DNA of 33,240 nucleotides from Candidatus Spyradenecus faecavium (GTDB lineage Bacteria; Verrucomicrobiota; Kiritimatiellia; RFP12; DVOR01): positions 1 through 33,240 of the forward strand of contig DVOR01000156.1 of assembly GCA_018713405.1 (NCBI GenBank), given 5' to 3'. Position 1 is the first letter of the stretch, and every line of letters begins with the position of its first letter. Shown in pieces: positions 5,935 through 33,141 of this stretch. The position numbers were made by a program, and so were the translations under genes. The notes under the pieces were generated by a model that worked only from the letters and a program-made list of their open reading frames with translations, did no database searches and was not told the DNA's origin.

Positions 5935-6042
5935 CCGTTCCGCCTCCCATCCTGTGTTCTCATGTCACAAGCATACCATATCCCACCCCAACCGTGCCAA
6001 AGAATCCTCCCCACGCCCCCAAACACCCCAAAGGGCCCCGGG

Positions 6043-6216
6043 CGAAACCCTAAGGGGGCCGAGGCGAAACCCTAAGGGGTTCGACCCAAAACCCTAAGGG
6101 TTTCGAGGCAAACCCTTAAGGGTTTCGGAAAAAGATGTGGACTTATGCAGAATCGGCCCCGGGGTGGGGCCGATTCGGAAGTGTGGAAGCTTGGAGGGTT
6201 GGAAGTTTGGTTGTGT
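6043..6216 (+). repeat. Composite repeat, copy 1: four palindromic units at exact 22-nt period (6043-6128), an 11-bp-stem hairpin (6150-6176), and a 5-unit 8-nt tandem array GGAAGNTT (6177-6216)
   Basis: Units CGAAACCCTAAGGGGGCCG / CGAAACCCTAAGGGGTTCG / CAAAACCCTAAGGGTTTCG / CAAACCCTTAAGGGTTTCG start at 6043, 6065, 6087 and 6109. Hairpin is GAATCGGCCCC-ggggt-GGGGCCGATTC. Array is GGAAGTGT GGAAGCTT GGAGGGTT GGAAGTTT GGTTGTGT. Near-identical to the reverse complement of 18322-18488. Confidence 0.9.
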
Positions 6217-7346: not shown

Positions 7347-7450
7347 AATGGCGCGTTATTTTAGCACACCCTCCCCGCCTCGGCGGCGGTGCGCAGGGGC
7401 GGGCGGTTTTTGCTATACTACAAGAAACGGTACACTTTGGAGACTGAAGC

Positions 7451-8697: not shown

Positions 8698-9869
8698 ACG
8701 GACTGCCCGAGACGCCCGCCTTCGTGGTGGATGTGGAGGCCCTGCGCCGCAACGCGGCCATCCTGCGCGAGGTCGCGGAGGCCTCCGGCGCGCACCTGCT
8801 GTTGGCCCTGAAGGCCTTTTCGATGCCGGTGGCCTTCCCGTACCTTTACGCTGAGGGCACCTGCGCCAGCAGCGTGCACGAGACGCTCCTGGGCGGGGAG
8901 TTCGGGGGCGAGCGGCACGCCTTCGCCGCGGCTTTCTCCGAGCGCGAGATGGCCGAGTTGCTCGACGCGGGGCTCAACCACGTCACGCTGAACTCCTTCG
9001 CGCAGCTGGCGCAGTGGCGACGCGTGGCCGCGGCCCACCCGCGCGGCGGGGAGGTCGCCGTGGGCCTGCGCATCAATCCCGAGCATTCCGAGGGGCAGGT
9101 GCCGATCTACGACCCCTGCGCGCCGCACTCCCGCCTGGGCATCCGCCGCGCCGCCTTCGCGGGGCAGGACCTCACGGGCGTCACGGGGCTGCACTGCCAC
9201 AACCTCTGCGAGCAGAACGCCGACTGCTTCGCCCGCACGCTCGAGGCCATCGAGGAGAAGTTCGGCGACCTGCTCCCGCGCATCTCGTGGTTCAACTTCG
9301 GCGGCGGGCACCACATCACCCGCGCGGACTACGACCGCGACCTGCTGGTGCGCACGTTGCGGGGCTTCCACGCGCGGTATCCGCACATCCGCTACTACCT
9401 GGAGCCCGGCGAGGCGCATGTGCTCAACGCCGGGACCTTCGTCTGCACGGTGCTGGACGTGGTGGACAACGCCGGCCCCATCGCCATCCTCGACGGCTCC
9501 GCCGCCTGCCACACGCCCGACGTCATCGAGATGCCCTACGTGCCGCGTGCCTTCCTCGACCTCGCGTGGGACGGCGCCGCGGCGCCCGGCCCCGGCGCGC
9601 TCCGCGCCGGCAAGCCCGGGGAGAAGCCCTGCGAGGTGCGCCTGGCCGGGCCCAGCTGCCTGGCGGGAGACGTCTTCGGCGACTATTCCTTCGACCGGCC
9701 CCTCGTGCCGGGCGACCGCGTGCTCTTTGAGGACATGGCCCTCTACACGATGGTCAAGACGAACACCTTCAACGGCATCCGCCTCCCCTCCCTGTGGCTG
9801 CGCCAGGGGCCCGGCGAGTTCACCCGCGTGCGCAGCTTCGGCTACGACGACTTCCGGTCGCGCCTGTGA
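8694..9869 (+). CDS. nspC: Carboxynorspermidine/carboxyspermidine decarboxylase
   Basis: From MNGLPETPAFVVDVEALRRN...: blocks LLLALKAF, GLRINPEHSEG, IYDPCAPHSRLGI, GLHCHNLCEQN, FNFGGGHHITR and YLEPGEA match the NspC-type PLP decarboxylase family. Alternative ATG at 8688. The 8631 start in the track is an unlikely extension. Confidence 0.85.
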   Translation: MNGLPETPAFVVDVEALRRNAAILREVAEASGAHLLLALKAFSMPVAFPYLYAEGTCASSVHETLLGGEFGGERHAFAAAFSEREMAELLDAGLNHVTLNSFAQLAQWRRVAAAHPRGGEVAVGLRINPEHSEGQVPIYDPCAPHSRLGIRRAAFAGQDLTGVTGLHCHNLCEQNADCFARTLEAIEEKFGDLLPRISWFNFGGGHHITRADYDRDLLVRTLRGFHARYPHIRYYLEPGEAHVLNAGTFVCTVLDVVDNAGPIAILDGSAACHTPDVIEMPYVPRAFLDLAWDGAAAPGPGALRAGKPGEKPCEVRLAGPSCLAGDVFGDYSFDRPLVPGDRVLFEDMALYTMVKTNTFNGIRLPSLWLRQGPGEFTRVRSFGYDDFRSRL

Positions 9870-9884
9870 GAGGAGGCCCCCGCC

Positions 9885-11822
9885 ATGAGAAAGATTCTTG
9901 CCCTCGCCCTTGCCCTTGCGTTCTGCCTGCCCCTCGCCGCGGAGGAGAAGGGCAAAATCGAGCTCCCCGCGCTGGAGCATGAGATCACCGGCCCCAATCA
10001 CGTCTATGGCCGCGCCCTCGACCCCGAGGACCTGGGCCAGCGCGCCGTCATCCTCTGGAACATCTCGCGCTTCGTCGAGCCCGGCTACAACCGCCTCAAG
10101 GCCGCGGAGAGCGGCGACGATGACGACGACGACAACAACAATTACCGCCGCAACAACCGCGACGACAGGGACAGGGAGGGCGGCCCGCAGGACCAGATGC
10201 GCGAGGAGAGCCGCGCCATCCAGCGCGCCTCCAAGGGCGCCGTCAAGGACGGCCGCCTGCTCGTCATCGCCGTCGACCCCCAGCCGGCCGACCCCGAGCT
10301 CCGCCGCTTCCGCACCGACGCCATCCGCGAGCTGAAGCCCTACTTCCCGGTCTACGCCATCGACGTCTCCTCGCAGTACTACGACGCCTCGGGCAAGCAC
10401 CGCGGCATGATCTCGGACATCAAGACCTTCGCCGAGGGCAACCGCCTCACCGACCTCCTCGCCGAGACGCCGGACTATCTCCCCGGGCGCATCATCACCT
10501 TCAAGACCAAGAAGATGGAGACGCTCTCCAAACGCTTCGTGGAGGGCAAGAACATCGAGCAGCCCCTCAAGCAGCTCCGCGCCGCGGCCAACGGCTCCGG
10601 CGAGAAGGCCGAGGAGGCCCAGCGCATGCTCGCCGCCGTCGAGGCCCACCTCGACGCGATGGCCGCCGACATCGACGCCGACCTCAAGGCCGCGCCCTCG
10701 CGCGCCCTCACGCGCATCGAGGTGCTCCTGAAGACCGCGCCCAGCCAAGGCGCGCGCTACGCCGGCGCCCGCCAGGCCCTCCGCGCCAACCCCGCCGTCC
10801 GCCAGCTGGCCCGCGCCCGCGAGTTCCTGCGCAAGGCCAACCACGGCGACGTCGGCCGCGGCGACACCGGGCGCCAGGCCGACGCCTTCGCCAAGGCCCT
10901 CACCCTGATGGCCAAGAGCGACAACGCCTCCATCGCCGCCGAGGCCACCGAGCTCGCCGCCGCCATGGAGCCCTATTCCGCCGCCACCCTCGCCAAGGAG
11001 CAGGCCGAGCTCCACGAACAGATCGCCGCCCGCCGCAAGGCCCGCGACGAGGCCCGCAAGGAGCGCGAGCAGGAGCGCCGCAACCGCCGCTCCGGCCGCG
11101 GCTCCTCCTCGCAGGAGGAGGACGACGACCCCGTGCAGCGCTTCGACACCGCCGGCGCCATCCTCGCCAAGTCCGCCGGCGAGGCCGCCATCGCCCCGCT
11201 CCGCGCCGAGCTCGACCGCCTGAACGACGCCACCTGCAACTACGAGCGCATCCGCGAGAACTACGCCGGCCACGCCGAGCGCCAGGGCGCGCGCAGCGAG
11301 GCCGCCAAGGCCGTCATCGCCGCCATCGACTCCTCCCGCCAGGGCTACCTCGCCGAGCTCGAGGCCATCCAGAAGGACAGCCGCCCCCTGGACCTCTATT
11401 CCACCCGGGACTGGGAGCAGATCATCGAGGTCAACTACCCCTCGCTCCAGCGCACGCCCGCCGGCTCCGAGGCCCTGAAGATGCTTCGCGACTCCGAGCT
11501 GCGCGGCATCCACGGCGTCTACGAGGACGTGCTCAAGGGCACGCCGGACCGCGAGGAGGGCGAGTCCAACGAGGACTACGCCGTCTCCACGAACCGCTAC
11601 CGCCAGACCAAGCTCAAGGCGCTCCTGAAGTACCGCGGCTCGCGCTCCAAGTATGGCCGCATGGCCGCCGCCCAGCTCGACTCCCTGGGTTACTCCAACG
11701 CCGGCATCCAGCAGAAGCTGAAGGACCTCGAGAGCCAGCTCAAGGACCTGAAGAAATCCGCCAAGGAGGCCGAGAAGGCGCGCGAGAAGGCCCAGAAGGA
11801 GGCCCGCCGCAACCGGGACTGA
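9885..11822 (+). CDS. Secreted hypothetical protein, largely coiled-coil, with an Asp/Asn run
   Basis: 645-aa ORF with GAGGAGG 8 nt upstream. Signal peptide MRKILALALALAFCLPLAAEE. Contains SGDDDDDDNNNYRRNNRDDRDRE. Long A/E/K/R-rich helical segments. No family recognised. Confidence 0.7.
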   Translation: MRKILALALALAFCLPLAAEEKGKIELPALEHEITGPNHVYGRALDPEDLGQRAVILWNISRFVEPGYNRLKAAESGDDDDDDNNNYRRNNRDDRDREGGPQDQMREESRAIQRASKGAVKDGRLLVIAVDPQPADPELRRFRTDAIRELKPYFPVYAIDVSSQYYDASGKHRGMISDIKTFAEGNRLTDLLAETPDYLPGRIITFKTKKMETLSKRFVEGKNIEQPLKQLRAAANGSGEKAEEAQRMLAAVEAHLDAMAADIDADLKAAPSRALTRIEVLLKTAPSQGARYAGARQALRANPAVRQLARAREFLRKANHGDVGRGDTGRQADAFAKALTLMAKSDNASIAAEATELAAAMEPYSAATLAKEQAELHEQIAARRKARDEARKEREQERRNRRSGRGSSSQEEDDDPVQRFDTAGAILAKSAGEAAIAPLRAELDRLNDATCNYERIRENYAGHAERQGARSEAAKAVIAAIDSSRQGYLAELEAIQKDSRPLDLYSTRDWEQIIEVNYPSLQRTPAGSEALKMLRDSELRGIHGVYEDVLKGTPDREEGESNEDYAVSTNRYRQTKLKALLKYRGSRSKYGRMAAAQLDSLGYSNAGIQQKLKDLESQLKDLKKSAKEAEKAREKAQKEARRNRD

Positions 11823-11884: not shown

Positions 11885-13450
11885 TCAGCCGACGGAGATG
11901 GATTCCTCAGGGTAGCGCACGTGGTGGGCCTGCGCGCGGGAGGCCATCATGAGCGCGAGGGAGACCGGGCCGATGCGGCCCAGGAACATCGTGAGCGAAA
12001 TGAGGAGCCGTCCGGCCTGGGAGAGGTCGCCGGTGGCGTCGAGGGTGGTGCCGACGGTGCCGAGGGCGGAGGAGACCTCGTAGAAGAGGGCGAACTCGCC
12101 GTGCTTGGCGATGAGGGCGTCCTCGGTGAAGAGGAGGAGGAAGTAGAGGAGGAAGAGGGTGGCGAGGTAGAAGAAGAGGATGACCATGGCCTCGCGGCAG
12201 ATGGCGTCGGGGATGGTGCGACGGTGGAGCTGGACGTCCGGGTTGCCGCGGATGTAGGCGCGGATGGTGAGGAGGACGACGACGAGGGTGGTCGTCTTGA
12301 TGCCGCCGGCCATGGAGCCCGGGGCGCCGCCGACGAGCATGAGGAGGACGGAGAGGACGTTGGCGGGGTGGGAGACCTCGCCCATCGGGATGGCGTTGAA
12401 GCCGGCGGTGCGGAAGAAGATGGCCTGGGCGAAGCCGGCGCAGGCCTCCTCGAAGTCCGTGTTGAAGGCGACGAGGGCGTCGCGCCACGCGCCGTCCGCC
12501 AGGGAGGCGATCAGGCCGGGGGCGGAAGGGTCGTGGACCAAGGAGCCGCGCCACTCGAGGGCGGTGAAGAGGAGCCCGCCGCCGACGGAGAGGATGAGGC
12601 TCATCCAGAGGACGACACGCGCCTGCAGGATGATGTGGCCGCGGCGGCGGAGGTCGCGCCGCCAGAAACGGTAGCGGAAGACGTTGGAGAGGACGAGGAA
12701 GCCGATGCCGCCGGCCGCGACCAGGAGCGCGAGGATGATGAGGATCGGGGCGTCGCCGCGGATGTCCAGCAGGTTGTTCGGGTGGAGGGAGAGCCCGGCG
12801 TTGCAGAAGGCCGAGACCGCGTGGAAGACCGAGAACCAGACGGCCCGGCCGAGTTCGTAGCCGTGGACGAAGTGGTAGCGGACGAAGAGGAGCGCCGCGC
12901 CGGCGACCTCGAAGGTGAGGACGTAGCGGAAGGTCTGCGAGAGCAGGCTGGCGGGGCGGCCGCTCGAGCCGAAGCTGATGGCGATCTGCCGCTCGCCGCC
13001 GAAGGGGACGCGCCCGAGCAGGATGGAGACGATGAGCGTGCCCAGGGCGACCAAGCTGATGCCGCCGAGCTGCACGCACCCCAGCAGGACGGCCTGCCCG
13101 AAGAAGGTGTACGTCTCGGGGACGGAGACCACGGCCAGCCCCGTGACGCAGGAGGCCGAGGTCGCCATGAAGAGGTTGTCGATCAGCGCCTCGCCCAGCT
13201 TGGCCCACGTGAAGGGGCGCCCCGGGGCGAGCCACGCCCAGCACCCGTCGCTCTGGGCCCACGGGGAGCAAAGCAGGAGGGTGCCCAGGGCGATGAGCGC
13301 CAGGAAGGTGACGGCGAGGGTGCGGTAGGGGTTGAACGGCTCCTGCTTGGCCGGGTCGCGGCGGCGCGCGGGCAGGGGCGTGGGCAGGTCGCGGAGGCGG
13401 TCGCGGTAGTCGCGCAGCGCCTGGCTTTGGGTGGGGGCGGCGTCGGTCAC
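11885..13450 (-). CDS. trkH: TrkH/KtrB-family potassium uptake membrane protein
   Basis: GTG start at 13450 overlaps the upstream stop as GTGA. Polytopic protein with repeated pore-loop-like segments (ATSASCVTGLAV, FHAVSAFCNAGLSL, FFRTAGFN, SSALGTVGTT). The 720-aa track ORF (to 14047) is an out-of-frame overlap with the upstream gene. Confidence 0.85.
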   Translation of the reverse strand: MTDAAPTQSQALRDYRDRLRDLPTPLPARRRDPAKQEPFNPYRTLAVTFLALIALGTLLLCSPWAQSDGCWAWLAPGRPFTWAKLGEALIDNLFMATSASCVTGLAVVSVPETYTFFGQAVLLGCVQLGGISLVALGTLIVSILLGRVPFGGERQIAISFGSSGRPASLLSQTFRYVLTFEVAGAALLFVRYHFVHGYELGRAVWFSVFHAVSAFCNAGLSLHPNNLLDIRGDAPILIILALLVAAGGIGFLVLSNVFRYRFWRRDLRRRGHIILQARVVLWMSLILSVGGGLLFTALEWRGSLVHDPSAPGLIASLADGAWRDALVAFNTDFEEACAGFAQAIFFRTAGFNAIPMGEVSHPANVLSVLLMLVGGAPGSMAGGIKTTTLVVVLLTIRAYIRGNPDVQLHRRTIPDAICREAMVILFFYLATLFLLYFLLLFTEDALIAKHGEFALFYEVSSALGTVGTTLDATGDLSQAGRLLISLTMFLGRIGPVSLALMMASRAQAHHVRYPEESISVG

Positions 13451-16820: not shown

Positions 16821-18229
16821 GGCGTTCCTTTCTTGGCCGACGGGCGGTCGGCGAAAACACGGAAGGAGACTCCCTTCCACAGCGTGGCTCGGCCCAGCTC
16901 GGCCTGGCGCGGCTCCCACTGGGCGCCCTCGGGCACGAGCGTGATGTCGGCCTCCTCAAACCGCCCGTCGCAGGCCACGCGGGTCGCCGCCGTGCGCAGG
17001 GGCCACAGCAGCGTGGCGCAGGCCCCCGGGTCCTCCGAGAGGACGCGGATGCGCGCCTCGTGCGTGGCGGGGGCGTCGTGCGCCTGCAGCAGGAGCGCGA
17101 CGGCGGCCTTCTGCTCGGCGCGTTCGGGCGCGCTCTCCCAGGCCTCGCCCGCCGTGCGGTGGAGCCAGAAGGCCAGGAAGGCCAGGACCAGCGTGCCGAG
17201 CACGCCGCGGATCCACGCCTTGGGGATGGTGGAGAGCGCCACGCCGCCCATGAGCGGCGTCAGGCACGCCAGGGGCACGGCCAGCGCGCCCCCCTCGTCG
17301 AAGAAGAGCGACCCCGCCAGGCAGAGCGGGAAGGCCACGGCCATCAGGCGCGCCCAGCGGCGGTTGTTGCGCCAGCCGCCCCACACCGTCAGCCCCAGCC
17401 ACGCCAACGCCGCCAGGCCGCCCGCGCACAGCCAGACCAGTCTCCAGGCCGATTCGCGCAGCCACGTCCCCGGGGTGGTGGAGAACGTCGGCAACGTCAG
17501 CTCCCCGCCGGCCCAGCCCAACCACGCCAGCGCCCCCCACACCGCGGCCAGCGTCGCGGCCATCGCCGCCACGTGCGCCGTCCGCCAATAGAGGCACAGG
17601 CGCGTCCAGCCCACGCCCACGGCCATCGCCGGCGCCAACGCCAGCAAGGCCCAGGCCACGTTGGGGTCGACGGCCAGCCCCACGCCCACCAGTGCGCCGA
17701 AGGCCACCGCCGCCACGTAGGTCGGCCACTGCGCGTAGGCCCGCGCCGCCACCAGCAGCGCCAGGAAGGCGAAGGTCTGCCCCGCGAAGGGGTCGAAGAG
17801 AATGCCCGACCACACCAAGGCCGGCGACACCGCCGCGAAGGCCATTGCCCACAGCGGCCCGTCCGCCGTCTCGAAGACGCCGCCGCGCCGCCGCAGCCCC
17901 AGCGCCGGGATGGCCGCCAGGAAGAGCGCCGAGAGCGTCAGCCCGAAGATCCGGTAGCACCGCGCCGTCGGCGCACCCTCGTTCCCCTCGTGCAGGAAGC
18001 GCGCGCAGGCCGCCGCCGCGCACAGGAAGGGCGACGGCGCCTTCGCCACGCCCTCCGGCCACTGGCGCGCGTCCAGCCCCTCGCCCGCCGCCGCCGCGCC
18101 CAAGAGCGCGGGCGCCTCGCGCGGCAACGGCAGGGGCGCGTTCAGGTTCGGGGCGCGCAGCCACACGCCCACGGCCAGAATCGCCGCGAACGCCAAGACC
18201 TCGATTGCGATCAACCAAACTTTGCGCAT
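16817..18229 (-). CDS. Large polytopic membrane protein, possibly a GT-C (ArnT/PMT-like) glycosyltransferase, with a C-terminal soluble domain
   Basis: ATG at 18229 (MRKVWLIAIEVLAFAAILAVGVWLR...). About 10 or more hydrophobic helices, then ~110 soluble residues. The upstream 50 codons of the track ORF (…SLEVWKFGG…) are translated repeat array. The functional call is weak, based only on topology and operon context. Confidence 0.4.
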   Translation of the reverse strand: MRKVWLIAIEVLAFAAILAVGVWLRAPNLNAPLPLPREAPALLGAAAAGEGLDARQWPEGVAKAPSPFLCAAAACARFLHEGNEGAPTARCYRIFGLTLSALFLAAIPALGLRRRGGVFETADGPLWAMAFAAVSPALVWSGILFDPFAGQTFAFLALLVAARAYAQWPTYVAAVAFGALVGVGLAVDPNVAWALLALAPAMAVGVGWTRLCLYWRTAHVAAMAATLAAVWGALAWLGWAGGELTLPTFSTTPGTWLRESAWRLVWLCAGGLAALAWLGLTVWGGWRNNRRWARLMAVAFPLCLAGSLFFDEGGALAVPLACLTPLMGGVALSTIPKAWIRGVLGTLVLAFLAFWLHRTAGEAWESAPERAEQKAAVALLLQAHDAPATHEARIRVLSEDPGACATLLWPLRTAATRVACDGRFEEADITLVPEGAQWEPRQAELGRATLWKGVSFRVFADRPSAKKGTP

Positions 18230-18321
18230 AAGTGCCCACCATTTTACCAAACCCACGCCCCGGCGTGCCCATTGCTTTTTTGTAAGCGCCGCCCCTCCGC
18301 CCTCGCTCCGACCGGCCCCAA

Positions 18322-18488
18322 CCAAGCCTCCAAACTTCCAAACTTCCAAACTTCTCGAATGGGCCGCCAAGCGGCCCATTCGAAATAAGTGCTGATGATT
18401 TTCTGAAACCCTTAAGGGTTTGCCTCGAAACCCTTAGGGTTTTGGGTCGAACCCCTTAGGGTTTCGCCTCGAACCCTTTAGGGTTTCA
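18322..18488 (-). repeat. Composite repeat, copy 2 (inverted relative to copy 1): 8-nt array CCAAGCCT/CCAAACTT x4 (18322-18353), hairpin (18357-18381), four 22-nt-period palindromes (18403-18488)
   Basis: The reverse complement of 18403-18488 reads ...GAAACCCTAAAGGGTTCGAGGCGAAACCCTAAGGGGTTCGACCCAAAACCCTAAGGGTTTCGAGGCAAACCCTTAAGGGTTTCAG. From the second unit on this is almost base-for-base identical to 6061-6127. Hairpin is GAATGGGCCGC-caa-GCGGCCCATTC. Confidence 0.9.
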
Positions 18489-18548
18489 TCTCTGGCGCTT
18501 TTGGGAAAGCGGCCCGGGAAAGAGACGTGGCGCACCGCGACGGCCACG

Positions 18549-18577
18549 CCTCCAAGCCTCCAAACTTCCAAGCCTCC
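18549..18577. repeat. Additional 8-nt-unit array (CCTCCAAG CCTCCAAA CTTCCAAG CCTCC)
   Basis: Read directly. Same unit family as 18322-18353. Lies ~100 nt upstream of the gspK-like start. Confidence 0.8.
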
Positions 18578-24972: not shown

Positions 24973-25012
24973 TTGGAAGTTCGGAAGCTTGGAGGCTTGG
25001 ATGTTTGGCAAC
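24973..25012. repeat. 8-nt-unit tandem array, G-rich orientation (TTGGAAGT TCGGAAGC TTGGAGGC TTGGATGT TTGGCAAC)
   Basis: Read directly. Begins immediately after the stop at 24970-24972. Inverted relative to the array at 25200-25236. Confidence 0.85.
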
Positions 25013-25035: not shown

Positions 25036-27795
<2,760 letters not shown>

Positions 27796-27828
27796 GAGAA
27801 CAGAGAACAGAAAACAGAGAACAGAACG
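27796..27828. repeat. 7-nt tandem array GAGAACA x4.5 immediately after the ABC fusion stop codon; inverted relative to 26893-26920
   Basis: GAGAACA GAGAACA GAAAACA GAGAACA GAACG. The reverse complement of CCGTTCT is AGAACGG, against AGAACAG here (6 of 7 matches per unit). Confidence 0.9.
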
Positions 27829-27934: not shown

Positions 27935-28075
27935 ATCTCCAACAAGGGCACACGCTGCGGCAAAAGGAACCTCAATGGGTTCGTCGGAGTGTCCGACAAA
28001 GAATGCCTATAATTATAGCAACCTTTCCGTTCTGAGTCAAGCGCTATTTTCAGTCCTGCGTGCGCTAGCACGCCC

Positions 28076-28104
28076 TCAATCTGCAACCAATCTGCGCAAT
28101 CTGC
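28076..28104. repeat. Three copies of CAATCTGC spaced 11 and 9 nt apart
   Basis: CAATCTGCaacCAATCTGCgCAATCTGCg, read directly. Confidence 0.7.
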
Positions 28105-28173
28105 GGTTCCCTTGCGCCGCGCGGGACGCTGTGTCCCCCGACTTTCCCCGGGCAGGGGCCGGCCCGGATGGCC

Positions 28174-29559
28174 TCACGAGGCGGGGCGGAGGTCGTTCCA
28201 GATGGCACGGAAATGGGTGAGGAGGGCCTCGCGGCGGGCGGCAATCACCTCGTTTGAGAAGGAGGTCGGCAGGTCGTAGAGCAGGTCACGGATGTCGGTG
28301 GAGAGCTTGGCGCGGGCGCTCTCGCTGGCCCAGAAGTCCGGCTTGCCGAACACGCCGCGCACGGTCGCCAAGATTTGCTTGGCCACCCGCTTGGCCTTCG
28401 CCATGTCCTCCTTGGAGAGCGCGACCCCACTGCGGATCACGTCATAGACCGCCAACTCCTCCTCGCTCTCGAATCCCTCCCGCACATAACGGTTCTGCTC
28501 CTCCGTCAGGCGCTTGGAGAGCTCCAGCAATTCCAAGAAGAGCCGTTCGGTGGCCTCGGGGTCCTGGCAGGCGTTGTAGGCCTCGGCGAGCGCCTCGTAG
28601 GCCTTCAGGAAGTCGGTGCGGACGGGGTTCTTGCGCGCGAGCGCCGTCGCCTTGGCCTTGATCCGCTCCAACACCTCCTCCATCATCAGGCGCTTGTGCG
28701 AACTTCGCCGGAAGGCGTCGGCCAGGCGGCCGAAGTCGATGGCGGAGAGGTCGAGCGGCTCGGCGACGGCCTTGCCCGTGTCCGTCTCGACATGGACATA
28801 GGCGTCGACGATCCGTTGGATGGTGGCGGAGAGGTCCGTGACGTCAATCTCGCGCCGGCGGCTCTCGAAGAAGGCCGAGATGGCGCGGTGGGCCTCCCGT
28901 TCGTCGATTTCCTCCTCCGTCAGGCTCTCTCGCCCGATGAGCGCCGCGGTATGGGTGAGCATCCGCACGGCGGCGAGATAGGCCGCCTTGTTCTCGGCGC
29001 TTTGGCTGACGGCCTCAGCGGCGTCGGCCAACGCCTGCAGGCGCTCCGTGGCCGTCACCGCGCCGAAGAGCCGCTCAATCGCGAAGCCACCCTCCTCCAG
29101 GCGCCGCGTGGCCTCGGCCAACGCCTCGCGGAAGCGCGCCACGAGCGCGTCCAAATCTTGGAAGGGATCCTGCCCCGCCGCGCCCGCGACGTTCGTGTAG
29201 TCGGCCAACGCCTTGCGGAGGGCGTCGACGATGCCGATGTAGTCCACCACCAGCCCGCCGACCTTCCCGGCGTCCACGCGGTTCACGCGGGCGATGGTCT
29301 GCATCAGCGTGTGGGCCTTCAGCGGCTTGTCCAGATAGAGGCAGCTCAGCGGCTTCACGTCGAAGCCCGTCAGCCACATGGCGCAGACGAAGACCAGCCG
29401 TAACGGGTCCTCGCGGTCCTTGAAGCGCTTGTCCAGCCGCTTCTGCTCCATGAGGTCCCGATGCGGGCGGATGTCCAGCCCATGCTTCTCGAAGACGGTC
29501 TCTTCGCCCTGCGCCTTGCTCACCACCACGGCCATCTCGGTGTCTTCCATGGAAGCCAT
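28174..29559 (-). pseudogene. hsdR: Type I restriction enzyme R subunit, C-terminal ~460-aa remnant (5'-truncated)
   Basis: ...TEMAVVVSKAQGEETVFEKHGLDIRPHRDLMEQKRLDKRFKDREDPLRLVFVCAMWLTGFDVKPLSCLYLDKPLKAHTLMQTIARVNRV... is the helicase motif VI region plus the C-terminal helical domain of HsdR. The nuclease, Walker A and DEAH regions are absent. High-GC sequence ends near 29560 where the low-GC cassette begins. The first ~23 codons of the track ORF are junction sequence. Confidence 0.8.
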
Positions 29560-29662
29560 CTCTGACGAAATCCGACATATGTGATACGCTAAGTTGCACG
29601 AAACGCTGAGCGACAAAATAAGCGGCAAAAGGAGTTGCGATTAAGATGTTTTAGTATCCCCC

Positions 29663-31006
29663 TTACAGACTCTTATTCTCTCCGTCATTGGGTTCAAACA
29701 ACGTCAATTGGCACGCGATTGGCGGCGTGGCACGCTGAGAGCTTCCACCCCCGTTCGCCTCATCTTCCATCGCTTCCAGAAGACGTTTTCCCATGCGCGT
29801 AATGAGGGGGACGACAAGTGCATTCCCCATCGCAAAGTAACGGAACTTTTCAGGCACGCCAGGTACATCTGTCCATCCATCAGGGAAGCCGTTCAAGCGT
29901 TCACATTCCACGGGTGTGAGGATACGTAAACGTCCGGTTTGTGCGTCAGTGATAACGTGGGATGATCGGTTGACAGATCCCTCACTGGTGAGCATCGTCC
30001 TCGCAGGAAGTTCAAGCGCATCTGGAAATCGTACAGGGCCTTCCGAGAAGAAGTAGGGGTCTCCGTTTGGCTTGACGCGGGGGATACGCTTTGCGCCCTT
30101 TAAGAATTTCCATTTATCCAGAGCTCCATTGAGGAAGAAACGGGCCGGAACTTCATCTGTCAATCTGATTTTCCCAAGCGGCGTTGGAGGTTCGTGGACA
30201 GGGGTTGTCTCAAAGGAAAGGACTTTCCCATCAGACATCACGCCAGCTGAATAAAACGGAGCAGCGAACGAGTCTGAGACATTTGCCAAATCTGGGAATT
30301 CCACCGGACCGACAGAGGTCTGCGTGTATTTACGTTCATCTGCCATATCCCCCTCAATAGGGAAAGCCTTCGCGAAGAAGCCATCGTGCAAAATAGTGTC
30401 TTTCAGCGCATAGTCCGCATCTTCCTTAATGTGATTCGCCAAGGCTTCACCTAAGGCTGTATCTTTTCGATAAGCGAAAATAAACGTCCGACGGCGTCGT
30501 TGAGCGTTTCCATAATCCGCAGCATTGACGACTCGCCATTCCACAGCATAGCCTTGGTCAAGCAGGCAACGCAGAATGACTCCAAAATCTCGGCCTCTTT
30601 GTTTTGTCGGGGACTTGAGTAGCCGGTCGACATTTTCCAATAGTACGTATTGGGGATGATGTTCCGTAATGACATCATTAATCGACCACCACAAGACCCC
30701 TTTTTTGCCTTCCATCCCTTGCGCACCGGTTCGCGCTACGGAATAATCCTGACAGGGGAAACCGCCGACAAGTAAGTCGTGCTCTGGGATTTCATTTTTG
30801 ACAAGGGCAATGTCTTGGTTTACGTGGTTCGGTCCAGCCCCAAAGTGATGAGTATAACAGGTGAACGCGTGTTGAACTGTTTTCCCAGGTTCCCACTGGT
30901 TTGCCCAAACTGTCTTGAATCGTTCAGAAACTTGTTCAAGGCCAAGACGGAATCCGCCGACCCCTGCGAACAATTCCACCACGCGAATATCTTTGTTTTC
31001 TCTCAT
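29663..31006 (-). CDS. DNA (cytosine-5)-methyltransferase, probable partner of the Sau3AI-like enzyme
   Basis: 447-aa ORF with C5-MTase motifs I VVELFAGVGGFRLG, IV GGFPCQDYSVA, VI LLENVDRL, VIII QRRRRTFIFAY and X AMGNALVVPL. ATGA overlap with the upstream endonuclease gene (31003-31006). Confidence 0.92.
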   Translation of the reverse strand: MRENKDIRVVELFAGVGGFRLGLEQVSERFKTVWANQWEPGKTVQHAFTCYTHHFGAGPNHVNQDIALVKNEIPEHDLLVGGFPCQDYSVARTGAQGMEGKKGVLWWSINDVITEHHPQYVLLENVDRLLKSPTKQRGRDFGVILRCLLDQGYAVEWRVVNAADYGNAQRRRRTFIFAYRKDTALGEALANHIKEDADYALKDTILHDGFFAKAFPIEGDMADERKYTQTSVGPVEFPDLANVSDSFAAPFYSAGVMSDGKVLSFETTPVHEPPTPLGKIRLTDEVPARFFLNGALDKWKFLKGAKRIPRVKPNGDPYFFSEGPVRFPDALELPARTMLTSEGSVNRSSHVITDAQTGRLRILTPVECERLNGFPDGWTDVPGVPEKFRYFAMGNALVVPLITRMGKRLLEAMEDEANGGGSSQRATPPIACQLTLFEPNDGENKSL

Positions 31007-32394
31007 TGCCTTGCCCCAATCACCTGTTCGATGTATGGCTTGTTAAACCAGAAGCCTTGTTTGGTGATAGTGCGACCATCCGGCAACAAATCTGTGTCCA
31101 ACCCGTCATGTCCATGTGGGCGTACATGGGCAATACGATTGTCTTTGGATTTGGGCAAGTCATTCTTAGTCCCGTTTCCTTTCTTCCAAAGTCTCACGCC
31201 ACGGCGAATGGTTTGACGCGTTTGCTCCCATACTTTACTGACTTCATTCAAATCAGACTCCGGCATATGCCAGAAAACTGTTCGCCAAAGCCGAATTTCT
31301 CCGTCCTTTCCTTCTTTAAAAACCACAAAGAAGAACTTTCGAGTTCGCAACAATTCTCCGAATCTTGATTCTTCCCATGATGGTTCTTCCAGCAATTCCG
31401 CGATTCGGAAGGCGGGAAAGGAAATGTGCTCCTTCATTCGACCGTTCTTATTGACGAAAACAGTTTTTGCATAAATCCCAGCCTTTTGGAACTCTTCTGT
31501 ATCCGTCAATGGTCCCTTGATACCATAAATTGCAGAAACAATTTGAGCACGAACGTTTTTGGCTTTTCCACTAAGACCAAAATGAGACTCAAGCGCCTGT
31601 TGTGTCCACCCAATGTAGGGACGAATCATATCTTGGATATAATCCTCAAACCGACTCTTCAAGGCAGAGGCGTCACGAATAAGTTTCTCATCCGGGGCCT
31701 TCCCAAATGCTTGATTGATAACACGTGTCATATACGTTGCCTTTAACGCATAAGCTCTTTGCATGGCAAGAATCGGTGAATATGGTTGGCGACGTAAAGT
31801 GGCGTTGTTTGGGCCTTTGGGGCAAGCCGAAAGATAGGTTGTTTCTGCTTCAGACAACAGGTGTGCCTCCCCCGCACGAATTTTCCCGACAATCCACGCC
31901 CAATCCTGCTCGATGATCTTTAAATCTTCATATGAAAACTGATGCAAAAATGCGGCTGCAATACGAAAGTCCGCACGTTGTACGTCTTTCTTGTACTCAT
32001 ATGGCAGAATCAGCATTGTTTCGCATTTCTTCCAAAACGAACTATCAAAGAAGTTGGCCTTCTCTGCCTCCTCCATATAGTCAATGATATTACAGACCAA
32101 CCTCTCTTTTGCCCGAATCTTCTTATCCTTTCTCCGGACAAACGGTGTTACCTTCAGTTCTACTTTTGCCTCTGGAAAGTCATATTCCGCACGACTGTTT
32201 GGCGAAAAACCAAACCAACCTTCTTCTACGACTTGTCCTAGACTTCCTTTGTTGCCAGTGTGCGACAATCGTCCGTGGATATCCAGTTCCCCAAACGTCT
32301 TACCTACCACGCCTTTCGCGCGCGCCAACACTTCTTCTTTTGTCTTGTACTGTCCATTCATGACACTCATTATACCGCAATCAATAAGAATCAT
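31003..32394 (-). CDS. Sau3AI/MutH-family type II restriction endonuclease (predicted GATC specificity by family)
   Basis: 463-aa ORF. ...VGKTFGELD...DFPEAKVELKVTPF...AKERLVCNIIDY...IIEQDWAWIVGKIRAGEAHLLSEAETTYLSACPKGPNNATLRRQPYSPILAMQRAYALKATYMT...FFFVVF...HVRPHG... is colinear with my recollection of Sau3AI (two MutH-like halves). The start could instead be M9 (32370) or M12 (32361). Confidence 0.85.
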   Translation of the reverse strand: MILIDCGIMSVMNGQYKTKEEVLARAKGVVGKTFGELDIHGRLSHTGNKGSLGQVVEEGWFGFSPNSRAEYDFPEAKVELKVTPFVRRKDKKIRAKERLVCNIIDYMEEAEKANFFDSSFWKKCETMLILPYEYKKDVQRADFRIAAAFLHQFSYEDLKIIEQDWAWIVGKIRAGEAHLLSEAETTYLSACPKGPNNATLRRQPYSPILAMQRAYALKATYMTRVINQAFGKAPDEKLIRDASALKSRFEDYIQDMIRPYIGWTQQALESHFGLSGKAKNVRAQIVSAIYGIKGPLTDTEEFQKAGIYAKTVFVNKNGRMKEHISFPAFRIAELLEEPSWEESRFGELLRTRKFFFVVFKEGKDGEIRLWRTVFWHMPESDLNEVSKVWEQTRQTIRRGVRLWKKGNGTKNDLPKSKDNRIAHVRPHGHDGLDTDLLPDGRTITKQGFWFNKPYIEQVIGARQ

Positions 32395-32972
32395 GCGACA
32401 CTTTCAAGATAACGTCTCGCTTGTAAGGCGTAAAAGTGCTCCTGCGGTGCGAATTTCTGAAGAAAGTATTCGTAGATGCGGCCGAAGACGTCGCCGCCGA
32501 TGGTGTCGAGGACGGGGTCGTTGAAGGTGCGCACCAGGTCGGCCAGGATGGCCGGCGGCAGCTCGCCGTACTGCTTGGGGAGGACGCCCGCGAGATCGGG
32601 GGACTCGGCCTCGATGGCGGCCATGGCGGCGTTCAGCGCCTCGGCCAGGTTTTCGTCTCCCGGCAGGGCCGCCAAACGGTCGTAGCGCGCGGCCTCGGGG
32701 AGCCAGAGCACACCGTTGCCTGTGTAGTCCGCCTTTTCGATGTCGTCGATGTCGCGGGAGCGGCTGTTGGGATTATTCTTTCTCTTCTGCTCCAACTTCT
32801 CCGTCTGCCGGCGGAAGCGTCCCCACGCGTAGCGCAGGAAGATGAGCCCCATCACGGGCATGCAATATTGGCTCGACGTCAGCTTGGAGTTCGAGCGCAA
32901 CGCGTCCGCCGACTCCCAAAGCCGCGCCTCCAGCGCCCTCAGCCGCTCATTCCACGCCATCGTCTCTGCCAT
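32391..32972 (-). pseudogene. hsdM: Type I R-M methyltransferase subunit, N-terminal ~180-aa stub (3'-truncated)
   Basis: From MAETMAWNERLRALEARLWESADALRSNSKLTSSQYCMPVMGLIFLRYAWGRF...GDVFGRIYEYFLQKFA (HsdM_N-type region and the start of the catalytic domain). It then reads into low-GC sequence to a stop at 32391. The AdoMet-binding and NPPF/Y motifs are missing. No hsdS is present. Confidence 0.8.
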
Positions 32973-33141
32973 CGTCGTTCCTTTCCGGTCTTTCCCATAG
33001 GATACCACAACCGCCCACCCACCGTCAGCGGGGCGTTCGGAGGCTTGGCGGCGCCTCCTTTTCCGCGAAGACGCAAAGAGTGCGGGTGCTCCGGCGGGGA
33101 CGGTCCCCGCCGTCCACCCGCCCTTCACGACTTACGGGAAC

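Follow-up and report, generated by a model that had tools for sequence, protein, structure and literature searches.

Composite repeat elements at the locus

The window, that is, the whole stretch of 33,240 nt analysed here, belongs to 'Candidatus Spyradenecus faecavium', which is placed in Lentisphaerota (PVC group) by NCBI, and has a G+C content of 68%. It contains two copies, A and B, of a composite repeat element that includes an array of short palindromes. Both arrays are intergenic in the public gene calls, in agreement with an earlier reading of the sequence (the first-pass annotation), which had found no coding feature to explain the element. Copy A is located between two co-directional genes: the stop codon of a metallophosphoesterase gene precedes it by about 50 nt, and a 664-aa gene starts about 90 nt further on. 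Copy B is found between two divergent genes, which encode a 470-aa membrane protein and GspK.

Palindrome array A (6025..6127, + strand) starts with a degenerate fifth unit at about 6025-6042, followed by four 19-nt imperfect palindromes at 6043-6061, 6065-6083, 6087-6105 and 6109-6127 on the same strand. The unit types are CGAAACCC/CAAAACCC/CAAACCC. The unit starts 22 nt apart (6043, 6065, 6087 and 6109), as reported in the first-pass annotation, were confirmed by direct reading of the sequence and by Tandem Repeats Finder, which gave a period of 22 with 4.4 copies at 6027-6122. Palindrome array B (18404..18488, - strand) consists of four units and was assigned the same period of 22 with 3.8 copies (18405-18487). 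The 15-nt core AAACCCTAAGGGTTT, with up to three mismatches, has 19 matches in the window versus 0.17 expected; all of them are confined to arrays A and B, and this count was attained by none of 100 shuffles. The inverted orientation of the second copy was likewise verified: positions 6026-6167 and 18364-18505 form an inverted repeat of 142 nt with 83% complementarity, and the second composite copy as a whole spans 18322-18505.

Each 22-nt unit consists of two 8-nt half-sites, CGAAACCC and GGGTTTCG, which are spaced alternately by TAA and by AGG or ACC. The units have the form AAACCC-TAA-GGGTTT with imperfect outer arms; their mismatches are A.G and A.C, not G.U. Since the orientation of the half-sites alternates every 11 nt, each half-site is able to pair with either neighbour.

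A and B lie 12.2 kb apart in inverted orientation, with the palindromes outermost. The ends of Tn7 and Mu hold several 22-bp binding sites, and A and B could accordingly mark, as inverted ends, a segment of 12.2 kb that is able to move or invert, on the model of Tn7 or Mu, each end with several 22-bp transposase sites. This is extremely improbable. The enclosed genes are of the housekeeping type (exosortase, TrkH, a radical SAM protein and Orn/DAP decarboxylase), and the palindromic units do not resemble TnsB or MuA sites. The pair was rejected as transposon ends or as an invertible segment on account of the missing transposase, the order and orientation that are unchanged in all strain contigs spanning the segment, and two further arrays, C and D (described below), that occur singly without partners.

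Linker, hairpin and 8-nt arrays

The palindromes of copy A are followed by a linker (6128..6149, + strand; GAAAAAGATGTGGACTTATGCA) that is common to copies B and C (GAAAATCATCAGCACTTATTTC, GAAATTCATCAGCACTTATTTG); in copy B it is located at 18382..18403 on the - strand. Next to the linker is a GC-rich hairpin. Hairpin A (6150..6176, + strand) has the sequence GAATCGGCCCC-GGGGT-GGGGCCGATTC, with a perfect 11-bp stem and a 5-nt loop, GGGGT, that is replaced by TTGCC in other strains. Hairpin B (18357..18381, - strand), with the sequence GAATGGGCCGC-TTG-GCGGCCCATTC, also has a perfect 11-bp stem and the loop TTG. When the stem pairs were compared by eye, two of them differed between A and B, each changed on both arms; the loops differ as well. 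The 11-bp stem and the two compensatory pair changes between the copies, both described in the first-pass annotation, are therefore borne out. On neither strand is the stem followed by a T run, so the hairpin is not a canonical terminator.

Directly after hairpin A, as had been noted, there is an 8-nt tandem array (6177..6210, + strand) of about four copies of GGAAGYKT, which is predicted to be unstructured. The corresponding array beside hairpin B is located at 18322..18354 (- strand). A second 8-nt array in the same orientation lies on the far side of array B (18544..18577, - strand), about 55 nt past its far end and within an 88-nt stretch that is missing in strain contig L084. Two further 8-nt arrays are free-standing: one at 24973..25008 (+ strand), with no palindromes and directly 3' of a stop codon, and one in the opposite orientation at 25200..25236 (- strand), inside a called 919-aa coding region. 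In some strains, 8-mer arrays are also found within a MITE-like insertion. Because 8-mer arrays occur away from the palindromes and arrays C and D lack the hairpin and the 8-mers, the composite is best seen as three or more repeat families that were joined by chance or in modular fashion.

Two side observations concern the start regions of genes. The inverted 8-mer arrays at 24973-25008 and 25200-25236 flank the start codon (25036) of the called 919-aa gene, an SBP/permease gene, in which the second array encodes a low-complexity PKSQASKPPSLQTSKE stretch. Both carry Shine-Dalgarno-like GGAGG/GGAAG every 8 nt and are, on their own, predicted to be unstructured. Close to copy B, the 29 nt that end at the start codon of the 470-aa gene (18227-18255, - strand; GGGTTTGGTAAAATGGTGGGCACTTATGC) match copy A at 23 of 29 positions, covering its last half-palindrome and the linker, and none of 2000 shuffles scored as well. 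Judged by this match, the stretch may be a degenerate extra copy of the element that now supplies the start region of the 470-aa gene.

Further copies in the same population

Contigs of the same population reach about 9.6 kb past the left end of the window, where two further arrays, C and D, are found; about 43 kb of population sequence hold the four palindrome arrays A-D. Array C (L092:14420-14500) consists of three palindromes and the linker GAAATTCATCAGCACTTATTTGGAAT; its neighbours are a zinc-ribbon gene on one side and a NUDIX gene on the other, and both the GAATxGGCC hairpin and an 8-mer array are missing. Array D (L092:19870-19985) is made up solely of five palindromes, with a mix of TAA- and TTA-centred units, and is located between two co-directional genes.

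The first-pass annotation had considered that only A and B might exist, as the product of a recent segmental duplication. This is not the case: the same genome also holds arrays C and D, and further arrays are present in the related MAGs described below. The genome-wide copy number is extrapolated from the roughly 43 kb of population sequence and the scan of related MAGs.

Genomic context of the arrays

All arrays seen are intergenic, in every type of setting: A and D have co-directional neighbours, B and C divergent ones, and the array of L034 convergent ones. The palindrome side of A, B and C faces a gene start that is 90-170 nt away. Among the 39 proteins flanking 25 arrays in PVC genomes, 87 Pfam families were matched, none of which was common to more than two proteins. 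These families include MutS, ClpB, TrpS, NusA, ATP synthase subunit a and MurF, and no enrichment of regulators or transposases was observed among the 39 proteins. No regulator, Rep or Par gene was found near the arrays. A scan for tRNA and tmRNA genes yielded nothing, and a blastn search of plasmid and phage collections returned no match.

At its right end, the window contains a restriction-modification cluster (28174-33128) with a MutH/Sau3AI-like endonuclease, a C5 DNA methylase and fragments of type I T1R and HsdM_N. All strain contigs end at most about 1 kb beyond this cluster.

Variation between strains

Copy A was aligned from the window and nine strain contigs (10 sequences), copy B from the window and ten strain contigs. 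Copy A varies in several ways. Exactly one 22-nt unit is lost in three of the nine strain contigs, the hairpin loop is either ACCCC or GGCAA on identical stems, a spacer reads GGGTCG or GACCCA, and point variants of the 8-mers are swapped between strains. In addition, 15 nt of the hairpin are deleted in L070 and the entire hairpin (32 nt) is deleted in L073. Copy B is near-identical in all sequences, its palindrome array being almost invariant; in L084, the 88 nt containing the distal 8-mer array are missing. One-unit steps and block replacement of loop and spacer are the outcome to be expected from slipped-strand mispairing and from gene conversion between copies.

The deletions also bear on the hairpin. 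In the first-pass annotation, its covariation had been taken to suggest selection on the structure. This interpretation is not upheld, as there are two stem versions only, the hairpin is partly or wholly gone in two of the ten copy-A sequences, and it is absent from arrays C and D. From two stem versions, selection on the hairpin and templated correction cannot be told apart, and the loss in two of ten copy-A sequences argues against strong selection on it.

The hallmarks of MITEs are terminal inverted repeats, target-site duplications and filled/empty polymorphism. For A and B, neither an empty site nor a target-site duplication was found in the window and the 19 aligned strain contigs (nine for A, ten for B). 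Nor was a clean pair of filled and empty sites found for any palindrome array.

All three hallmarks are present in a different, MITE-like element of 345-380 nt in the same population. Its empty site corresponds to positions 7347-7450 of the window, and the filled site is found at about 9610-9990 in seven strain contigs (L069, L070 and L072-L076); the element is absent from the window, L071 and L078. The terminal inverted repeats are approximately GTGTCCnGGGAA, with GCCGCC as the likely target duplication, and the internal cassette is variable, with GGAAGTTT 8-mers in L069 and CCGGATTGGGAA repeats in the other contigs. Pieces of the element are also located at 28051-28154 and at the contig end (33179-33232). 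Perfect 7-nt tandem arrays are found in the window at 26892-26922 and 27795-27825 (TCCGTTC x4.4 and AGAGAAC x4.4), and in a relative, GAGAACG arrays resembling them adjoin MITE pieces (L100:4030-4060).

Related arrays and the recurrence of the 22-nt period

To survey related arrays, 185,579 genomes, one per species, were scanned with a pattern of two cores 20-23 nt apart, and at least 68 loci were matched. The MAG CALXMV (BRZ_SL bin71) carries at least four loci with 2-4 units of the CGAAACCCTAAGGGG type, and Spyradenecus sp. MAHA01 carries arrays at nine loci or more. Arrays of TTAACCCTAAGGGATAATTSAA occur in MAHA01 and in two related MAGs, and these MAHA01-type arrays consist of exactly four units with defined end units at all 12 of 12 loci among the matches listed. 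Some of them adjoin a second four-unit array with CCCCNNGGGG cores. Across loci, the related arrays hold between two and seven units, with a centre-to-centre spacing of 21.5-22.5 nt in every related family. The core AACCCTAAGGG is retained in two Spyradenecus lineages with differing flanks. At L017, L033 and L058, a second four-unit array of 22-23 nt lies about 100 nt upstream of the CCCTNAGGG arrays. It has the AT-rich flanks GATAATTCAATTAA in common with them, and its cores are GC, of the CCCCACGGGG/GCCCGTGGGG type, so that the flanks are kept and the core is changed.

The pattern was also matched in other phyla (Chloroflexota, Gemmatimonadota and others). These matches were rejected as a sign of conservation because core and spacing were fixed by the pattern itself; with 185,579 genomes, REP-like families may plausibly have converged by chance on one 10-nt palindrome. 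The specific pattern had no match in the JGI metagenomes, and the general pattern had two unrelated matches in viral contigs.

In about 75 kb of sequence from closer relatives, which fall into a set with orthologue identities of 85, 74 and 65% and a second set with 86%, no CCCTAAGGG array was found, and the only trace of 8-mer arrays was one short run in L103. At the position that corresponds to array C by orthology, the 86% relative shows a gap of 57 nt. This comparison worked for array C only; around the metallophosphoesterase orthologues, synteny is not kept. The repeat family is missing from two close relatives and therefore, on these sequences, restricted to a lineage, in the manner of repeat populations.

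A period of 22-23 nt is also seen in arrays of unrelated units for which the search had not selected; they occur in the same and related genomes (L103, L045, L064, L031 and L042). L103, for example, with 74% orthologue identity, has 22-nt arrays of very different units at 882-980 (TCAGCGGCTGATCCACCTCGGC x4.5) and at 13132-13187 (ATCAGCCCCCGACCCGAGGAGG x2.5), the latter about 25 nt from the short CCAAGCYT 8-mer run (about 2.5 units).

The regular phasing had led the first-pass annotation to propose a cooperative binding array for a dimeric protein, that is, an operator, iteron or centromere. Helically phased repeats (21.5-22.5 nt) are indeed present, and neither a cognate rep, par or regulator gene nor a coherent regulon was found. 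The proposal is not supported, given the unrelated housekeeping neighbours, the divergent, co-directional and convergent settings, the strain-variable unit number, the absence of a regulator, Rep or Par gene nearby and the close relatives without arrays. A more general form of this idea is that the arrays are sites of a dimeric or structure-specific DNA-binding protein that occupies one face of the DNA every two helical turns and has an organising or regulatory role. Candidates would be a nucleoid-associated protein, a topoisomerase, an IHF-like factor as at the BIMEs of E. coli, or a transposase. The tight spacing in all related families, the fixed four-unit design of the MAHA01-type arrays among the matches listed, the 22-23-nt periods of unrelated units, the core AACCCTAAGGG kept between differing flanks and the palindrome side turned toward a gene start in A, B and C all point in this direction. 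A period that is kept while the sequence is replaced is not needed by slippage alone, which keeps the protein alternative alive. It is nevertheless doubtful. The neighbouring genes are unrelated and include no linked candidate for the binding protein, some arrays are located between convergent genes or inside operons, the unit number ranges from two to seven across strains and loci, and close relatives manage entirely without arrays. Outside AAACCC/GGGTTT the palindromes are imperfect with uncompensated mismatches, and the matches across phyla, being selected by the search pattern, add no evidence of conservation.

The 22-nt period that persists while the units change is unexplained by a purely selfish or slippage model and would fit a protein reading one face of the DNA. 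In an extended version of this thought, a clade of gut PVC bacteria carries elements of about 90 bp with approximately four 22-bp-phased palindromes, whose units are swapped between species (CCCTAAGGG, CCCCNNGGGG, TCAGCGGCTGA and others); this would call for a conserved protein that reads the array or for a dedicated mechanism of amplification, with two helical turns as the length measured. We consider it quite unlikely, and a constant number of four units is seen in a single lineage. If true, such an array-reading or amplification system would be genome-organising or mobile and of a kind not described for REP elements. Only the constant 22-nt period across unrelated units holds out a prospect of something new.

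Predicted folding and the case for a structured RNA

As single-stranded DNA, array A is predicted to fold with -25.9 kcal/mol (z -4.4), and the z-scores of the arrays range from -4.4 to -6.5. RNA folds of 201 nt gave z-scores of -2.6 and -5.6 for A and of -5.9 and -7.8 for B on the two strands. For both RNA and single-stranded DNA, the predicted minimum-energy fold is one long nested hairpin rather than the four tandem stem-loops that the first-pass annotation had envisaged for the RNA.

The element could represent a dedicated structured RNA, be it the gene of a small RNA or a regulatory leader acting in cis, that functions via its stem-loops and the compensatory hairpin. The strongly stable predicted folds (z down to -7.8), the two double-sided pair changes in the hairpin and the position of A and D between co-directional genes, where they are probably transcribed, speak for such an RNA. 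However, the two strands fold with equal stability, which any palindrome would do, the element has no constant orientation with respect to the flanking genes, and the mismatches within the units are A.G and A.C rather than G.U. The hairpin, moreover, is absent in C and D and deleted in part or as a whole in two of the ten copy-A sequences. Transcription signals do not favour an RNA gene either: a sigma-70 promoter scan of copies A and B revealed no promoter-like site, the lone terminator-like site of each copy is located inside the palindrome array, with no more such sites than in shuffles, and the hairpin lacks a T run.

No match was obtained for the whole window with Rfam at gathering thresholds. 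A permissive search gave sub-threshold matches only, to Pxr and miRNA hairpin models, the best of which was the Pxr sRNA (RF01812) with 28.6 bits and an E-value of 0.0034. Pxr resembles the array as a multi-stem-loop RNA of about 100 nt, and this weak match may be counted in favour of a structured RNA; yet 28.6 bits are far below the gathering score of 80, and the array is not a member of the family. Taken together, a dedicated structured RNA is very unlikely.

A probable REP/BIME-like repeat family

The arrays are best explained as a REP/BIME-like family of dispersed, non-coding palindromic minisatellites that is present in multiple copies and varies by slippage and gene conversion. We assign this reading a probability of roughly 0.6. 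It covers four observed properties of the arrays, namely that they are multi-copy, extragenic, modular and strain-variable. The first-pass annotation had mentioned a REP/BIME-like element as its alternative, which fits well with the further dispersed arrays in the same genome and in relatives.

The basic module would consist of 3-5 units of 22 nt that follow one another head to tail, each with two inverted 8-nt half-sites. In a single-stranded array, be it DNA during replication or RNA, any half-site could pair with either neighbour, and the whole array could also fold back into one hairpin of about 30 pairs interrupted by internal loops. The resulting ambiguity of register would permit slipped-strand mispairing in one-unit steps as well as templated repair or gene conversion between copies, which are the kinds of difference seen between strains. 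Where a palindrome arm is repaired from its own partner or from another copy, 'compensatory' changes in the hairpin could arise by a non-selective route. Linker, GC-rich hairpin and 8-nt arrays are modules of their own that happen to be joined in A and B. The arrays would be mobile, spreading either through transposition by a trans-acting enzyme that acts on hairpin DNA or through recombination. Effects on the host would be incidental and in cis, for example through transcript hairpins that slow exonucleases or pause RNA polymerase; by analogy with REP elements, such effects on transcripts would be expected at A and D.

Several observations do not fit a REP/BIME-like family as easily. The regular spacing of 21.5-22.5 nt and the recurring 22-23-nt periods with unrelated units are unexplained, copy B hardly varies among the window and ten strain contigs, and no clean pair of filled and empty sites was found for a palindrome array. 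In addition, no RAYT/IS200-type transposase was found near any array: a phmmer search with approximate RayT/IS200 queries against the ORFs of the window and of L001-L099 gave no match in the PVC loci (about 0.2 Mb of PVC sequence). The sole RAYT-like gene was found in a Leptolinea (Chloroflexi) MAG (L054), where it accompanies its own GTAG-type REPs and not the palindrome described here. This gene (L054:5365-6030) matches Pfam Y1_Tnp with an E-value of 5.7e-4, a match that falls short of the cut-off, and has GTAGGGGCGTACGGCCGTACGCCCCTAC-type palindromes on both sides. It forms a textbook-looking REP-RAYT unit beside, and unrelated to, a ACCCTAAGGGT pair.

If a REP/BIME-like family is the right explanation, the finding is mostly an ordinary one, another lineage-specific family of hairpin-forming intergenic repeats. 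It would document such repeats in gut bacteria of the Lentisphaerota/Kiritimatiellota type, for which none were found described; we know of no REP/BIME-like description in PVC-group bacteria. A literature search for the core sequence returned primer sequences only, and one for Kiritimatiell* together with palindromes returned CRISPR mentions only. For annotators, it would be a caution that the phased palindromes here are not operators or iterons. The arrays could serve as strain-typing markers because of their variation in 22-nt steps, and they would probably also mark places where contigs break and local recombination occurs in metagenome assemblies.

Comparison with known repeat systems

The iterons of plasmid R6K are 22-bp direct repeats at one origin next to a rep gene. 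They share with the arrays the 22-bp phasing and a number of three to seven repeats. Iterons, however, are direct repeats at a single origin beside a rep gene, whereas the arrays described here are palindromic, dispersed in the chromosome and located by unrelated genes, and no match was found in the plasmid collection.

MIRU in Mycobacterium and BOX in Streptococcus pneumoniae are interspersed intergenic repeats whose units, about 45-100 nt long, are no simple palindromes; the orientation of MIRUs with respect to translation is fixed. The arrays resemble both in being interspersed intergenic tandem arrays whose unit number differs between strains in the manner of VNTRs, and in their modular build, with a variable middle and optional flanks. 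They differ in that the MIRU and BOX units are longer and non-palindromic, and the fixed orientation of MIRUs is not seen.

REP/BIME sequences in Enterobacteria and REPINs in Pseudomonas are short imperfect palindromes that are strictly extragenic, multi-copy and arranged in arrays with variable units; they fold into long hairpins, are lineage-restricted and vary between strains (PMC3116915, PMC3337134, PMC3479197). The arrays depart from this type in several respects. There is no GTAG at the unit ends, so that the GTAG-type head tetranucleotide is missing, no RAYT gene is found beside any copy, the units are only 22 nt long and arranged head to tail with half-sites alternating every 11 nt, and the host belongs to the PVC group. 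What they have in common are short imperfect stem-loop palindromes in extragenic positions, clustered arrays of alternating orientation that fold into a long hairpin (half-sites every 11 nt, the mixed array D and the nested predicted fold), restriction to a lineage and differences between strains.
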